Virus record (IMG/VR): IMGVR_UViG_2512047041_000008
Origin: a virus
Taxonomy: Duplodnaviria > Heunggongvirae > Uroviricota > Caudoviricetes
Direction: 5' to 3' (one strand)
DNA length: 56,009 bases
Shown piece by piece: positions 3,022 through 53,725 of this stretch. Position 1 is the first letter of the stretch. Each line of letters begins with the position of its first letter. Under the pieces are notes generated by a model. The model searched no databases. It saw nothing but the letters and a program-made list of their open reading frames with translations, and was not told where the DNA came from. A program made the translations under genes and the position numbers.

Positions 3022-3912
3022 TCAGGCTGCCAGATCATCGTTTCCGATGGAAGCATAATAAGCTTTTTCTGCTTCTGCCGGAGGAGTATGGCCCAGCCTT
3101 TCCAGCAATCGTCGATTGTTATACCAGTCCACCCACGTGAGTGTGGCCAGTTCCACTTCTGCACGGTTTTTCCAGCTCTTACGGTGTATTACCTCCGCTT
3201 TGTAAAGACCATTGATGCTCTCCGCCATCGCGTTGTCATACGAGTCGCCTGTACTTCCTGTTGATGCCAGTAATCCGGCTTCCTTAAGCCGCTGTGTGTA
3301 GGCCAGCGATACATACTGAGAACCTTTATCACTGTGATGGACCGTGCCGGACGGTCGACGGGCCCATAACGCCTGCTCCAGTGCATCCAGCACGAATGTC
3401 GTTTCCATGGACGATGAGACCCGCCACCCCACGATGTATCCGGCAAACACATCAATGATGAACGCCACATAGACGAAGCCCCGCCATGTGCTGACGTAAG
3501 TAAAATCAGCCACCCACAGCTGGTCAGGTCGTTCTGCCACGAACTGACGGTTTACGCGGTCGCCTGCGGCAACGGCTTTCCGGCTGATGGTCGTACGGAC
3601 CTTTTTACCCCGGAGAACACCGGCAAGTCCCATAACCGCCATGAGACGTGCCACAGTGCATCTGGCCACTCTGATACCTTCCCGTAACAACTGACGCCAG
3701 ACTTTACGCACACCGTATACCTTGTGATTTTCATCGTATACGCGCTGTATCTCTTTCTTCAGCCAGTCATCGCGCTGCGCACGGGCACTGCGTTTATCCG
3801 GATGATGTCGCTGTTGCTGACAGTGGTAATACGTTGACGGGGCAATATGCAGTTCGCTGCATAGCGGTCCGACCCCGTACTGCTCACGCAGCTTATCCAG
3901 CAGTGGCATCAT
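3022..3912 (-). CDS. IS629 transposase OrfB (DDE catalytic domain)
   Basis: 296 aa, DDE/rve-type; start overlaps orfA stop (ATGA). Confidence 0.85.
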
Positions 3913-20564: not shown

Positions 20565-21905
<1,341 letters not shown>

Positions 21906-32589: not shown

Positions 32590-32770
32590 CGACAGACGGC
32601 TGGCATTTAAGTATTGTGAAATATTATCAAATGTAATCATCATTGATTTACAAAAGATACATTTTGCCCCGAAAGGATTCATGTCAGAAACATCAAAAGA
32701 TGATGTTCTATACTGGGAACCATGACAACACGGGCATCTAAAGTGAATATGGTTTGTAATATTGTCTACC

Positions 32771-32983
32771 TCAAAGCGCCACTACATGAACAGCGGCAGG
32801 ACCTTTAGGTCCGTTCTCAATACCAAATTCAACTTCCTGATTCTCAGTTAATGTTTTGAAATCGTTGCTCTGAATTGCTGAGAAATGGACAAACACATCT
32901 TTGCTGCCATCTTTCGGCGTGATGAAACCAAAACCTTTTTCAGGGTTAAACCATTTCACTAAACCAGTCATTTTGTTAGACAT
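32771..32983 (-). CDS. cspI: Cold-shock protein CspI-like
   Basis: 70 aa; RNP motifs KGFGFI and VFVHF. Confidence 0.85.
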
Positions 32984-33345
32984 AATTATTACCTTTTGAA
33001 GAAATTAGCCCTTGGGCAGAATGGTCCGAAAAAAAATATCAGAGAGAAAAACCAACAAGGAAATCTCAAGAGGTACAAATAATAAAATTATAACAATGAC
33101 TGCTTCAGATAAATTTGTAACAAACCAGAACACCATTAACGCATGATTAACCACCCATAGCAAGGATTACTTTTGTAAAGAAAAACACAGCAATGAAAGA
33201 ATAGCTTTATTTATTAATAAAACGTGTCATTCTGATTAAGACCTTTTATCTTACCCTTAAGATTTCAGGAATTTTGGCTCATGGAAGAGTCCTTTTTATT
33301 TAAATTTTACATTCCGCGATGTAAATGTTCCGATTTAATATTACC

Positions 33346-35291: not shown

Positions 35292-35654
35292 TTGATTTTA
35301 TTAGTAACAAGTATTTTTTATATTTTAATAATATATTTAAAGCAGATAATAAAAAACCCGCCTGAGCGGGTTTGAGATTGTGGTGCTTTTTGTGGGAGTC
35401 ATCCACTTACGCACTTTGTTTTGCCATGCCAGCAGTTAGCTTCTGCTGTAAAACTATTCATGCAGCAAACCTGCACTTCACCACAATGGTTAGCATACTT
35501 TTCCTGATTAAGATTTTGCCAAATATGCTAGCCATTGTTTCATGTATTGGACCTCCTTACTTTTTATTAAAGAGATCCAATATTCACTACTCTGTCCGTA
35601 TCTCTACTCAGGCATCAGCCTTCTTCGTTATCGTATACAGACGAGCGATGAATT

Positions 35655-35870
35655 TTAATCAGTAATGATGACATTTGCTGCTGCAGGACCTTTAGCACCA
35701 CTCTCTATAGAGAAGGTAACCTTTTGACCTTCAAATAAGGTTCGATAATTATCATTCTGAATCGCAGAAAAATGCACAAACACATCTTTACTACCATCAA
35801 CAGGAGAAATAAAGCCGAAACCTTTATCAGCGTTAAACCATTTTACTAAACCAGTCATTTTATTTGACAT
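35655..35870 (-). CDS. cspB: Cold-shock protein CspB-like
   Basis: 71 aa with CspA-family RNP motifs. Confidence 0.85.
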
Positions 35871-36170
35871 TCTACATTCCTTAACTTGAGCCTTTCGGCA
35901 TAAATGGTTTGCATAACAGAAACGACTTCGTACTTAATTGGAGAGACTCAAAGAAGGAATAAGTGAATAACACCTGAAATGAGAACTGCTTTAGTAAACT
36001 ACTTCGTATATCGTCTGTTCTTCAAACCGACGCAATCATTAACGCATAGTTGAACATATGAAGCAATGTTTATTTTAGACATCCAGCCATCTTCAACCCC
36101 ATCAAAAAACTATAGCTTTCTTCAGGAACGTGTGTATAGTGCGCCAAGTTATCAGTATTAAGGAATTTTT

Positions 36171-42127: not shown

Positions 42128-42193
42128 CGGTTTTCTCCGGTGGCACGGTGTTACTCAGCGGGAGTTCAGCCCCGCGCAAGATTGTAGATGAGT

Positions 42194-42445
42194 TTATTCT
42201 CCTGAAAAAGCAGAAAAGCCAGCTTTTATTCCGATCTCTTTCAATGCCTGTAATGAAGTGACAAACTCACCTTCGCGCAAGATAAATCCGTCCGTGACCC
42301 GAGCATCCACAAAATTAATTAACGCAGCCCCATTCTTTCGCAAACACATAATGCGGTAATGACTAACAAGATTTCCATTTTCAACGCACACAGCATAGAG
42401 GCCATCTTCACAAAAAATTTTACGCAGTTCTTCGATGTTCATCAT
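42194..42445 (-). CDS. Hypothetical small protein
   Basis: 83-aa ORF, no recognised family. Confidence 0.4.
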   Translation of the reverse strand: MMNIEELRKIFCEDGLYAVCVENGNLVSHYRIMCLRKNGAALINFVDARVTDGFILREGEFVTSLQALKEIGIKAGFSAFSGE

Positions 42446-42661
42446 CAGAATCCTTCCGGATAATTAGCTCTCCCCTTTAAGGGACCATCCCTCTTATCCC
42501 TGCGCGCTACTTAAGTATTTTTGATTCTATTCCGGCACCGTCCAGAACTTCAAACGCGTTGAAAATAAAAACAAAAACCCGCCGAAGCGGGTTAAGTGCG
42601 GGTGCGTTGAGGATGCCTGCCACATCAGAGGTGGCGAGGGATTTCTCCCCCGCCGGGTCTC

Positions 42662-42817
42662 TTACTCCTCAGGTTCGTAAGCTGTGAAGACAGCGACCTC
42701 CGTCTGGCCGGTTCGGATTCGTACCTCGCAGAGGTCTTTCCTCGTTACCAGTGCCGTCACTATGACGGTTAAACAGATGACGATCAGGGCGATTAACATC
42801 GCCTTTTGCTGCTTCAT
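42662..42817 (-). CDS. hokD: Hok-family toxin
   Basis: 51 aa translated by hand from the minus strand, MKQQKAMLIALIVICLTVIVTALVTRKDLCEVRIRTGQTEVAVFTAYEPEE. Confidence 0.85.
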   Translation of the reverse strand: MKQQKAMLIALIVICLTVIVTALVTRKDLCEVRIRTGQTEVAVFTAYEPEE

Positions 42818-42888
42818 AGCCTGCTTCTCCTGTCAACGCAAAGCAGAAGTGTCACCTTCGGTGCGAAACAGAGATGTCATGCTTTGGT

Positions 42889-48610: not shown

Positions 48611-48944
48611 GAAAAATCCCCCAGAGAATTGTCTGGGGACATTTTAGAATGGTTCAAAGGGGACATTACAGCTTGGTGTTAACAATAGCCTGCTTCTCCG
48701 TGCCTTTCGGCACGTAAGAGGCTAACCTACATGTGTCTAGCATGAAATTGGCCTCAGATTAATGTTAAGCGTCTTGCAGGACGCGTAATGTTAACTGGGG
48801 CTTTTCTCTATCTGCCGTTGGTGTCCATGCCCGAGGCAGATAGCCTCAAGCACCCGCAGTCATTCTACTTAACTAAGATTTCCCCGCAAACCGTTTTTGT
48901 CCAGCACAGTAAATATCCAACTAAACCAATGGAGTTCGCTGTAT

Positions 48945-49163
48945 TTACCGCCAGTATTCAATGCACATGACCGCCATGAACACCCCTAAAAAAAGGGCAT
49001 TTATATATCCAAATATTAATATCAAAACATCAACTTTTTCCATATACCTTGCTGTGAAGATGATGGGCATACATGATGCGAACAACCAGAACGCAACAAA
49101 CAAAAACTGCAATGCGTTTTTCATTATTCCTCCTACAATCAATGTGCAATTACATTTAAACAC
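48945..49163 (-). CDS. Hypothetical small membrane protein
   Basis: 72-aa hydrophobic ORF; weak support. Confidence 0.3.
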   Translation of the reverse strand: MFKCNCTLIVGGIMKNALQFLFVAFWLFASCMPIIFTARYMEKVDVLILIFGYINALFLGVFMAVMCIEYWR

Positions 49164-50276
49164 ACCTCAATTTGGCCGGACATATAAATATCTAAACCAG
49201 AAAAAATCACTTACATAGCGTTACAAACTCTTTAGTCTAAAGGTTCATCGTAAAACATTCCCCATACTTATCAGTCCGTTCCGCGCCAGGTAGCTCATTG
49301 CCTTATCTGGCAACCTGTAATCAGGTTTCCGCTTTTTCAGTTGGCTGGTCGTTTAACCGACATAGTTAATCCATTAATCTAGTTGCCGGATGTTGGTGGA
49401 TTTTCGCGTTTTAGTTGTTCATAAAAGTGCACAGCTTTAACCAGTTCTTCTGATGTAACTGGGACTGGTGAGGCAGTGAATAAGGCCTGAATTTGATAGT
49501 TCGGCCTGTCGTTACAATCCTCTTTTTTCGGTACATATTTCCAGTCACCAGACCACTACTTCCCCTGAAAGTCCGTAACGCCTTTTTTCACGTAGCGATA
49601 TCGCCATGCCACTGGTTTTGCTTGCCCCGCCGTTTCATGCCCTTCCTGATAATTAATCTCGCTCATTCATCGCCCCACTCATCACAATATGCTTCGACCG
49701 GAGTTTTTCCCGCTTCATAGTCATCACGCTAGGATTCGACATCAGCAGCACTTCCACCGCGTAACTCACCATAGTCCATTAATAGTTCATCCCGCTCTTC
49801 AAAACTGATGTTATATTTAGCTGAACAAAAATCAGCCACTTTGTTCTTCCTCATCGTCTTTTATTTCGTGGTATGAGTAATTGCAGTAGTTAAAGAAAAT
49901 TTCTTATGCTCCGTCATGAATTTCCTCAGGTGTTGCGTCATCGTCCACTTCGAATACATCCTCAAAATCTCCACCAGCTATTCCCGTTTCAATAATAATT
50001 TTGAACTTTCGCATTTCACTACCGCCCTTTCGGGCGGCCTCCTGATGTTCTGAGGGTGCAGAAATCCATCCGGTTAAGGATTAAATTTTATTTACAGAAC
50101 TGAATTTAATTATTCAGATATACGTATCTGTAGCCTTACGAATCTACTCACTGGATGCCTCTTTCATAAAAATAATCCAGTGGGTTTTATCGTTTTTTCC
50201 CTGTTCGTTGACAGATAACAGGTTTTCTGTCTGTCAGTGCCAGAATCTGGCTTACCGGTATTTGCGTTTCATTCCA

Positions 50277-50633
50277 TTAAAAAATCAGAACGCCGTGCGG
50301 CCTCAACACCCGAAAGGCTTCTTTAAATCTCTGTCGCGAATCATCACGCCAGGCATCTTTATTCAGCCGTCCATATTTCTTTCCCATCCAGGCGTTATCA
50401 CCAACACTCTCAAGATGCGGAGGGTCTAATACAACCATCGAAAAAGATGCGTCTGCAAATGATAATGCACGAAAATCTGCGATAATGTCAGGGCTGATAA
50501 TCAAGCGTCTCCCATTGCGTAATGTGTATCCTTCTTTTCTGATATCGCTGAATATCGCCCGTTCGTCAGACTTATCGAACCAGAACATGCGGCTGCCACA
50601 GCACATATCAAGAATGGTTGCCGGTGCACTCAC
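50277..50633 (-). CDS. DNA methyltransferase-like protein (short, possibly truncated)
   Basis: SAM-binding-like DMCCGS and catalytic DPPH motifs; only 118 aa. Confidence 0.5.
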   Translation of the reverse strand: MSAPATILDMCCGSRMFWFDKSDERAIFSDIRKEGYTLRNGRRLIISPDIIADFRALSFADASFSMVVLDPPHLESVGDNAWMGKKYGRLNKDAWRDDSRQRFKEAFRVLRPHGVLIF

Positions 50634-51052
50634 TGCGCCACGTCCTGAAAATTACCCTGATAGAAAGCCAGTATGCGCTGCATAACTTCGCTCTTCCGGC
50701 ACTCGCGACAGATTATGTTTAGGCGACTGTCGTAGCGACGTATTTCTCCGTCAGGTGATGACCAGATAAGGTCCGGATCAACCACAGCAGGTTTCTTCAC
50801 CTTTGCCCTCGAGAGTTTTTTGCGGGCGTTTTGCCAGTCCTTACGCGCCTGTTCAGAGGGGAATAACCCGTAGCCGGAGTTGTATACATCGCCACTGGCT
50901 ACCAGCTCTCTGGCAAGAACGCTCATCAGATATCTAGTCGCACCTGTTTTAGCTTCCAGTTGCCGTAACGTCTCACGGCCGCTCTGGCGCACGAGTTCCA
51001 CCACCTGCCATTTAATTTTTTCCCGCTCTTCTTGTGTAAAAACTTTTGCCAC
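50630..51052 (-). CDS. Hypothetical phage protein downstream of the replication gene
   Basis: 140-aa ORF overlapping the methyltransferase start. Confidence 0.45.
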   Translation of the reverse strand: MAKVFTQEEREKIKWQVVELVRQSGRETLRQLEAKTGATRYLMSVLARELVASGDVYNSGYGLFPSEQARKDWQNARKKLSRAKVKKPAVVDPDLIWSSPDGEIRRYDSRLNIICRECRKSEVMQRILAFYQGNFQDVAQ

Positions 51053-52452: not shown

Positions 52453-52511
52453 AGCCCAGAATGCTTCAGTGAACCGCCCCGGGTTTCCTGGAGAGTGTTT
52501 TATCTGTGAAC

Positions 52512-53399
52512 TCAGGCTGCCAGATCATTGTTTCCGATGGAAGCATAATAAGCTTTTTCTGCTTCTGCCGGAGGAGTATGGCCCAGCCTTCCCAGTAATC
52601 GTCGATTGTTATACCAGTCCACCCACGTTAGTGTGGCCAGTTCCACTTCTGCACGGTTTTTCCAGCTCTTACGGTGTATTACCTCCGCTTTGTAAAGACC
52701 ATTGATGCTCTCAGCCATCGCGTTGTCATACGAGTCGCCTGTACTTCCTGTTGATGCCAGTAATCCGGCTTCTTTTAGTCGCTCCGTATAGGCCAGTGAC
52801 ACATACTGAGAGCCTTTATCGCTGTGATGGATGGTGCCAGACGGACGACGGGCCCACAACGCCTGCTCCAGCGCATCCAGCACGAATGTCGTTTCCATAG
52901 ACGATGAGACCCGCCACCCCACGATGTATCCAGCAAACACATCAATGATAAACGCCACATAGACGAAGCCCTGCCATGTGCTGACGTAAGTAAAATCAGC
53001 CACCCACAGCTGGTCAGGACGTTCTGCCACGAACTGACGGTTTACGCGGTCACCTGTGGCAACGGTTTTCCGGCTGACGGTAGTGCGGACCTTTTTACCC
53101 CGGAGAACACCGGCAAGTCCCATAACCGCCATGAGGCGCGCCACTGTACATCTGGCCACCCTGATTCCTTCCCGTAACAACTGACGCCAGACTTTACGCA
53201 CACCGTACACCTGATGATTTTCATCGTATACGCGCTGTATCTCTCTCTTCAGCCAGTCATCGCGCTGCGCACGGGTACAGCGTTTATCAGGATGATGCCG
53301 CTGCTGCTGACAGTGGTAATACGTTGACGGGGCAATATGCAGTTCACTGCATACAGGTCCGACCCCGTACTGCTCACGCAGCTTATCCAGCAGTGGCAT
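52512..53399 (-). CDS. IS629-like transposase OrfB (variant)
   Basis: 295 aa, DDE. Confidence 0.8.
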   Translation of the reverse strand: MPLLDKLREQYGVGPVCSELHIAPSTYYHCQQQRHHPDKRCTRAQRDDWLKREIQRVYDENHQVYGVRKVWRQLLREGIRVARCTVARLMAVMGLAGVLRGKKVRTTVSRKTVATGDRVNRQFVAERPDQLWVADFTYVSTWQGFVYVAFIIDVFAGYIVGWRVSSSMETTFVLDALEQALWARRPSGTIHHSDKGSQYVSLAYTERLKEAGLLASTGSTGDSYDNAMAESINGLYKAEVIHRKSWKNRAEVELATLTWVDWYNNRRLLGRLGHTPPAEAEKAYYASIGNNDLAA

Positions 53400-53725
53400 T
53401 ATTTTTTCCAGAGGCGGTCGAACTCCGCCTTCGCAAAATAAGCGGAAGCCTGGCGAAGGATATCGTTACTGCGGCGCAGTTCACGATTTTCACGTTCCAG
53501 CTCTTTCAGACGCTGACGTTCAGCGGTGGTGAGCCCACCATCACCGCCCCCGGTATCCCGCTCATGCTGGCGAACCCAGACACGCAGAGTCTCTGGCGTA
53601 CAGCCAGTCTTTGGAGCAATGGAACAAATTGCCGCCCATTGTGAGTCATATTCGTCCTGACTTTCCAGAACCATACGAACTGCCCGTTGACGGACTTCGG
53701 GGGAAAAACGTGTATTTTTAGTCAT
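53399..53725 (-). CDS. IS629-like transposase OrfA (variant)
   Basis: 108 aa, a few substitutions relative to copies 1 and 2. Confidence 0.8.

Follow-up and report, generated by a model that had tools for sequence, protein, structure and literature searches.

The stretch of DNA analysed here (the window, 56,009 nt) carries on its minus strand a run of short open reading frames (ORFs), downstream of a DNA methyltransferase gene, which coincide with the remains of three small phage genes that we call A, B and C. Short minus-strand ORFs at 49700-50020 were the subject of the original prediction, and all four are present there in the ORF listing. The features of the locus, all on the minus strand, are as follows.

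50144..50633, minus strand: DNA methyltransferase pseudogene (phrog_954), with a premature TAA at 50279-50277 and one frameshift
50021..50043, minus strand: translation-initiation region of gene A, with AGGAGG at 50043-50038, a hairpin at 50037-50022 and the AUG at 50014
49832..50014, minus strand: gene A pseudogene, ancestrally 60 aa (DUF7167, Pfam PF23768; phrog_1997), with a premature TAA at 49906-49904
49663..49839, minus strand: gene B pseudogene, ancestrally 58 aa (phrog_519), with ATG changed to GTG at 49839-49837 and a TAG at 49731-49729
49245..49666, minus strand: gene C pseudogene (phrog_660; intact length 119 aa in L004 and L006), with a TAG at 49558-49556, codon 37
50014..49904, minus strand: 36-aa ORF of the ORF listing, MRKFKIIIETG..., the 5' stub of gene A
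49854..49729, minus strand: 41-aa ORF of the listing, MRKNKVADF... (MRKNKVADFCSAKYN...), covering the 5' part of gene B
49772..49653, minus strand: 39-aa ORF of the listing, MVSYAV..., out of frame
49666..49556, minus strand: 36-aa ORF of the listing, MSEINYQEGH... (MSEINYQEGHETAG...), the 5' stub of gene C
49974..49861, minus strand: 37-aa ORF of the listing with a GTG start

Four ATG-initiated ORFs of at least 35 codons lie on one strand within 481 nt, where dinucleotide shuffles yielded a mean of 0.77 and gave four or more in 0.2% of cases; the density of minus-strand ORFs is therefore above chance and the sequence is coding-like. When the stops were read through by straight translation, every short ORF was found to run on in its own frame, gene A as ...IHDGA-stop-EIFFNYCNYSYHEIKDDEEEQSG-stop, gene B as ...AADVES-stop-RDDYEAGKTPVEAYCDEWGDE-stop and gene C as ...DFQGK-stop-WSGDWKYVPKKEDCNDRPNYQIQALF.... 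The ORFs of 35-45 codons had been taken for genes, but homology that continues past their stops identifies them instead as 5' fragments of nonsense-mutated pseudogenes. The overlapping ATGA-type junctions described for them come down to one true ATGA (GATGAATGAGC, 49666-49663), which links gene C to the portion of B that follows the premature stop of B; the listed ORFs themselves touch one another solely via the out-of-frame 39-aa ORF. The latter (49653..49772, minus strand) was rejected as a gene and is considered spurious: it overlaps the 3' half of B and the start of C, it has no family match, its Shine-Dalgarno (SD) score of -4.1 is at background level, and it occupies a non-coding frame of a gene that is under purifying selection in relatives.

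Relatives at approximately 90-93% DNA identity carry a conserved trio of genes at this point, A, B and C, in the same order and with the same spacing. For gene A, DNA alignment with intact relatives places the lesion precisely, GCA AAA GAA having become GCA TAA GAA, so that Lys37 is replaced by an ochre codon. The intact A protein matches Pfam DUF7167 over positions 1-60 of 60 (E-value 7.9e-15; 55.1 bits against a cutoff of 24.4) and phrog_1997 with an E-value of 9e-31, but the A ORF of the window reaches only positions 1-36 of 57 of phrog_1997 and is family-derived but truncated, falling short of the whole domain. Gene A is 60 aa long in 71 of the 79 loci compared, and intact copies show a dN/dS of 0.07-0.09 (Nei-Gojobori). 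In an AlphaFold model the intact protein adopts a strand-strand-helix-strand fold (pLDDT ~79), from which the truncation would be predicted to take away strand 3 and half of the helix. The PGAP label for A is 'DUF7167 family protein, internal stop'. We also noted a database relative with a window-type gene A, P0025, in which a 7-codon in-frame deletion has taken out the TAA. A literature search for 'DUF7167' found no paper, sequence searches with A and B found no relative in the PDB, and Foldseek comparison of the predicted A and B structures with the PDB gave no match with an E-value below 1. A likeness of A to T7 Gp2 and phage p56 was discarded as evidence, the resemblance being weak (probability at most 0.33).

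Gene B carries two changes. Its start, ancestrally AAAATGGCTGA, now reads AAAGTGGCTGA (ATG to GTG, 49839), and at codon 37 TGG has become TAG, replacing Trp37 by an amber codon; the ancestral stop of B, TGA at 49665-49663, overlaps the ATG of C. The family membership of ancestral B was established by DNA alignment. Intact B matches phrog_519 with an E-value of 4.5e-23, and the 36-aa stub of B in the window gave no match to phrog_519 at E<=0.01. An NCBIfam scan of B and C returned no family. Gene B is an ATG-started gene of 58 aa in 68 of the 79 loci, and the dN/dS of intact copies is 0-0.05 (Nei-Gojobori). The AlphaFold model of intact B (pLDDT ~79) consists of three helices, and the truncation would, on this model, delete helices 2-3, which bear the invariant residues A36-W37-D40-Y41-A43-G44-K45. 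Beyond the stop, the protein sequence of B is still identical to that of intact copies, and few substitutions separate the broken from the intact alleles; the lesions are therefore relatively recent compared with the divergence of the alleles. We considered the possibility that the amino-acid changes of the window B represent drift after inactivation and rejected it: most of these 'window-branch' changes are carried by an intact allele, P0092, and must therefore predate the nonsense mutation. This window-type B, which has kept its ATG start and Trp37, is itself already substituted at W16 and H17, two residues that hardly vary otherwise.

The third gene is the most extensively altered in its downstream part. 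The codon that has become the TAG of C is ATG, CAG, CCG or TGG in intact copies and is thus a hypervariable position, and the 3' part of C has diverged, contains further stops and differs from L003 and L010 by a 57-nt indel. Elsewhere C occurs in longer mosaic forms (at least 119 aa overall). Intact C of 119 aa matches phrog_660 (E-value 6e-43) over positions 34-143 of 193, while the C stub of the window covers only positions 34-68 of 193 (4.8e-08) and, being truncated, does not qualify as a member of the family. Intact copies of C have a dN/dS of 0.2-0.3 (Nei-Gojobori), and the PGAP label for C is 'hypothetical protein, frameshifted; internal stop'. A run of A residues just upstream of the TAG (49580-49590) varies in length among phages (A6, A7 or A8); with A8 the frame is shifted and the TAG skipped, giving an 85-aa junk-frame ORF which is annotated in some phage records. 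This 85-aa 'C' frame of L003-type phages was rejected as a conserved overlapping gene, stops being present in the frame in intact L004 and L006. L004 (PP818812, 'Actinobacillus phage vB_Apl-pPE4') is attributed to Actinobacillus pleuropneumoniae, and its module is at 90% DNA identity to the window; it carries Ead/Ea22-like and Hok genes, and the host attribution looks odd.

Immediately upstream, the methyltransferase gene has been damaged in the same manner. Its 5' ORF (50633..50277, 118 aa) ends at a TAA where intact copies have Lys (AAA; TTT AAA TGG in L006), and reading past this stop gives ...VLIF-stop-WNETQIPV.... In addition, there is a +1 frameshift in a GGG/A-run near 50200, where L006 has one G fewer, and the ancestral C-terminus (GKNDKTHWIIFMKE...) can be read in another frame. 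When both the stop and the frameshift were repaired, the protein matched phrog_954 over positions 52-205 of 229 (E-value 6.7e-80). PGAP describes this gene in L007 and L008 as 'frameshifted; internal stop', and RefSeq treats the 118-aa ORF differently from genome to genome, sometimes as an intact protein (WP_001310834.1) and sometimes as a pseudogene.

The position of the trio is shown by L006, an apparently complete lambdoid prophage in which the order is cro, ydaT, replication genes, DUF1627, DUF977, methyltransferase, A, B and C, followed by a 69-aa gene, DUF551, hokD, DUF968, RusA and Q. The distance from the start of A to that of B is 175 nt in all 79 loci, and that from B to C is 173 nt in 72 of the 79. 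At intact junctions A and B overlap by 8 nt (ATGGCTGA) and B and C by 4 nt (ATGA), which is, judged by its sequence, the classic arrangement for translational coupling in the ancestral trio. The 36/36/36 length pattern is limited to the window type among the 79 loci. Here 49 nt separate the premature stop of A from the MRKNK ATG, and 64 nt separate it from the ancestral start of B; between the premature stop of B and the ATG of C there are 62 nt. With termination 49-64 nt ahead of the next start, coupling is broken in the window. The idea of small coupled genes is therefore correct for the ancestral genes (60 and 58 aa, coupled) but not for the copies in the window.

Start sites were scored by their pairing with the anti-SD sequence (background mean -3.6, sd 2.6). 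The start of A scored -8.2 kcal/mol, from an SD-like GGGCGGU in the 3' arm of the hairpin, the ancestral start of B, now GTG, scored -6.3, and that of C -7.6. Support from ribosome-binding sites, which the original prediction had proposed as a check, thus extends to the ancestral starts but neither to the 39-aa ORF, which is at background, nor to the MRKNK start, which has no SD (-0.9 kcal/mol). This ATG lies 15 nt upstream of the true B start and was rejected as a start in its own right: it is a fortuitous, SD-less in-frame ATG within the 3' end of gene A. The second proposed check, conservation, came out positively, the peptides being kept in related prophages.

Of 5,426 complete E. coli genomes searched with a 511-nt query, 2,084 contained the region. 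At least 99% identity, which corresponds to the broken allele in the Qin position, was found in 518 genomes (about 10% of the 5,426), and approximately 1,235 genomes matched at 90-95% and are annotated with three intact genes. All five of the copies at >=99% that were examined have every lesion in common. One of them, L007, has decayed further, with the TAG of B changed to TAA and a 1-nt deletion (frameshift) in C, and L010 is an independently decayed copy with different lesions. Within the >=99% group we counted approximately four nonsynonymous and three synonymous changes, one frameshift and one TAG-to-TAA change, too few events for selection statistics. In RefSeq, A and C are already marked as pseudogenes and the remnant of B is not annotated; in the phage record PhiR42_1 the stubs are called hypothetical proteins. 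Public protein collections contain exact copies of all four listed peptides under the name 'hypothetical protein' (E. coli W/KO11FL and IAI1 are examples), with 565, at least 1000, 75 and 25 contigs per peptide in the order listed above, and PGAP at times gives the 36-aa A stub a WP accession, i.e. treats it as an intact protein. The broken genes are therefore already known, in that reference annotation largely flags them.

Sequence and gene order identify the locus as the rightward early arm of an old and decaying E. coli prophage, cryptic and of the Qin type. A region of 1,501 nt is 100% identical in many independently sequenced complete E. coli genomes, including ATCC 8739, ML35 and a strain labelled DH5alpha, and PhiR42_1 is 99.9% identical to this 1.5-kb region. 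In ATCC 8739 the order is ydfB, ydfA, dicA, dicC, a ydaT-family gene, a replication gene, DUF977, methyltransferase, this region, ISNCY, ydfW and flxA. The proposed nin-like or Qin setting is borne out, as the prophage is of the Qin type and the ancestral genes are flanked by the replication genes and Q, a position equivalent to nin. In the window there is no match for dicA, dicC or ydfA/B, and ydaT lacks its first 88 nt, an IS3-family element standing in their place; the dicA/dicC side and the ydaT 5' end having been lost to this element, the arm is without its native early-right promoter in the window. A promoter and terminator scan of 49100-50700 gave counts near shuffle expectation and nothing convincing. 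An Rfam scan of the whole window gave no match in 49200-50300, so that no known sRNA or cis-element accounts for the region.

A number of further observations concern the surroundings of the locus. The IS3-family element that truncates ydaT (52473-53725) has an ALIL frameshift pseudoknot. It stands in place of the entire dicC-dicA-ydfABC-dicB side of the prophage, and directly adjoining it are genes for a 3'-5' exoribonuclease and a tyrosine integrase. There are three such IS copies in the window (ALIL hits at 3838, 45140 and 53328) plus one ISNCY element, and with this IS load the segment 44000-56009 is unmatched end to end among the complete E. coli genomes searched, the best coverage being 89%, in pieces. 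A hok/sok-type locus is present in two parts (48685-48868 and 42181-42831): the leader/sok part (Rfam sok, 104 bits) is found a short way downstream of gene C, and the hok coding part with its downstream sequence lies approximately 5.8 kb from it, ISNCY and IS3-family elements intervening. Elsewhere in the window Rfam recognized two cspA-type thermoregulator leaders and one isrC sRNA (32744-33129, 35639-36031 and 20724-20846), the former in agreement with Qin-borne csp genes. Finally, a very hydrophobic 59-aa ORF (MKNALQFLFVAFWLF...) occupies 48945-49121 on the minus strand, with a perfect AGGAGG 4 nt before its ATG. It is unannotated by RefSeq in identical loci, phage records annotate the opposite strand ('hornerin'), it has tblastn matches in three phage records only, and it has no PHROG or Pfam family.

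We consider it very probable that the short ORFs represent the 5' portions of three small phage genes, all of them stopped at codon 37, and that the locus has undergone ordinary gene decay. In working relatives, A, B and C (an acidic protein of 60 aa, an acidic three-helix protein of 58 aa and a protein of at least 119 aa) would be read successively from the early-right transcript, after the replication genes, DUF977 and the DNA methyltransferase, and ribosomes would move from A to B to C via the overlapping stop and start signals. In the lineage of the window, each gene has acquired an in-frame stop at codon 37, B has lost its ATG and C its 3' end, and the methyltransferase has gained a stop and a frameshift; in the window itself, the arm has also been severed from its promoter by the IS element. 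What is left over are stubs of 36-41 codons without the conserved C-terminal parts. Such stubs are most likely non-functional and are probably barely expressed.

An alternative in which the in-frame stops are leaky and act as expression attenuators, with low readthrough giving full-length A, B and C, has been proposed in general terms for many in-frame stops of bacteria: Belinky et al. (2021; PMC7918605) report that stops of this type which are conserved and show dN/dS below 1 occur widely in bacterial genes. Such a role would agree with the fact that the three lesions are clean nonsense changes in which the frame is kept, with the unchanged protein sequence of B after its stop and with the persistence of the alleles in approximately 10% of complete E. 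coli genomes, although the vertical inheritance of a cryptic prophage accounts for this. In E. coli termination, TAA is the least leaky stop. It is this codon that interrupts A, and readthrough is further at odds with the loss of the ATG of B, the scrambled 3' end of C with its additional stops, the frameshift in the methyltransferase and the absence of the operon promoter region from the window; in L007, moreover, a frameshift in C and a change from TAG to TAA have been added. We regard readthrough of this kind as highly improbable, and equally little can be said for the view that the ORFs of 36-41 codons are genuine small-protein genes whose truncated peptides have gained or kept a function. 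It is true that the annotation of many genomes includes these exact peptides as hypothetical proteins, the A stub sometimes with a WP accession, and that the A and C stubs keep good ribosome-binding sites. However, database entries of this type are the output of gene callers and not functional evidence, and the stubs are missing the conserved C-terminal cores. Moreover, MRKNK has no SD and the true start of B is now GTG, gaps of 49-64 nt break the coupling, the 39-aa ORF is without a family match, and the stub pattern is restricted to one clonal allele family. That the stops are sequencing or assembly errors in the window is scarcely conceivable, since 1,501 nt are 100% identical in many independent complete genomes and 99.9% identical in a phage record; identical independent copies that share every lesion refute this explanation. 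Decay of three formerly intact genes accordingly remains our preferred reading of the short ORFs.

The translation-initiation region of gene A has a further feature. A hairpin, CCGCCC-GAAA-GGGCGG, follows directly after the AGGAGG, with an optional G.U closing pair (50038/50021; 6-7 bp in all); its predicted stability is -15.5 kcal/mol and it is present in both the MFE and the centroid fold. The linear distance from AGGAGG to AUG is 23 nt, of which 7 nt (50021-50015) lie between the hairpin and the AUG. The layout of AGGAGG, hairpin and AUG is kept in 76 of the 79 loci. Variants include one compensatory double change from G-C to A-U (seven loci) and one-sided changes that preserve pairing in five pairs, several of them C-to-U changes that keep a G.U, with 96.6% of cells paired; covariation of the hairpin over the 79 loci was not significant, being equalled by 81 of 500 shuffles. 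The possibility that this GC hairpin is an intrinsic terminator was excluded, there being no U-tract on either strand. In the split ribosome-binding site of T4 gene 38/25, the SD is brought to a functional distance from the AUG by an intervening hairpin, and such sites have been defined by an SD more than 20 nt from the AUG, a stable hairpin between the two and a restored spacing of 5-11 nt (PMC3014915). The gene A leader fits this geometry, with 23 nt of linear distance, a hairpin of -15.5 kcal/mol and 7 nt left. Our tentative suggestion, which is rather less likely than the contrary, is that the leader functions as a split ribosome-binding site like those of T4 gene 38/25; alternatively, the hairpin may instead mask the weaker SD-like GGGCGGU in its own 3' arm. 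We also observed, at 50047-50070 on the minus strand, a CCCUC upstream of the SD that has two potential pairing partners, the SD (GAGG) and a GGAGGG farther upstream, the latter partner being mutated to GGAUGG in the window; that the conserved leader of approximately 110 nt contains an alternative-pairing switch is purely speculative.

If the gene A leader does operate as a split site, such a site would occur in the early operon of lambdoid prophages in approximately one-third of E. coli genomes, and it would set or regulate the production of two tightly coupled small acidic proteins, A and B, which are under strong purifying selection. Intact A and B are both small and very acidic. Early phage proteins that are small and acidic typically inhibit host proteins, and by analogy intact A and B may do so too. 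The intact A-B pair, which over 1,200 complete E. coli genomes contain, and the ribosome-binding site bridged by the hairpin would be reasonable small targets for the study of early lambdoid accessory genes, as features of the intact genes and not of the broken copies of the window; the hairpin leader is the only part of the locus with residual interest. Otherwise the locus is of little import beyond annotation hygiene: it illustrates how nonsense mutations in a decaying prophage can mimic 'coupled small ORFs', which gene callers then deposit hundreds of times.

Comparison with known systems places these features in context. The leader of gene A resembles that of T4 gene 38/25 in that its hairpin would cut the effective spacing to approximately 7 nt, but it bears no sequence relationship to the T4 leader and is known here from its sequence and predicted fold. 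In intact L006 the trio occupies a position equivalent to the nin region of lambda, with which it shares small, tightly packed genes and overlapping junctions; Pfam, PHROG and NCBIfam scans gave no family match between the trio and the lambda Nin proteins. Relative to the intact DUF7167/phrog_1997, phrog_519 and phrog_660 genes, which are uncharacterized and belong to the early region of lambdoid prophages in E. coli, the window copies of A, B and C show 90-93% DNA identity and the same order, spacing and junction layout, but each copy in the window is stopped at codon 37, B is without its start and C without its 3' end. The original prediction had likened the short ORFs to the ydfA/B/C genes of Qin; however, A, B and C belong to other families, and ydfA/B/C, which are absent from the window, are unrelated to them in sequence and form part of a leftward operon beyond dicA. 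Indeed, ydfA and ydfB are annotated at positions 1-269 of L001, to the left of dicA, in a segment that is unmatched in the window. The Qin prophage of K-12 presumably lacks the rightward segment described here. With Qin as a whole, the agreement is that of the same prophage, identical copies of the region lying between dicA-dicC-ydaT-replication-DUF977 on one side and ISNCY-ydfW-flxA on the other.
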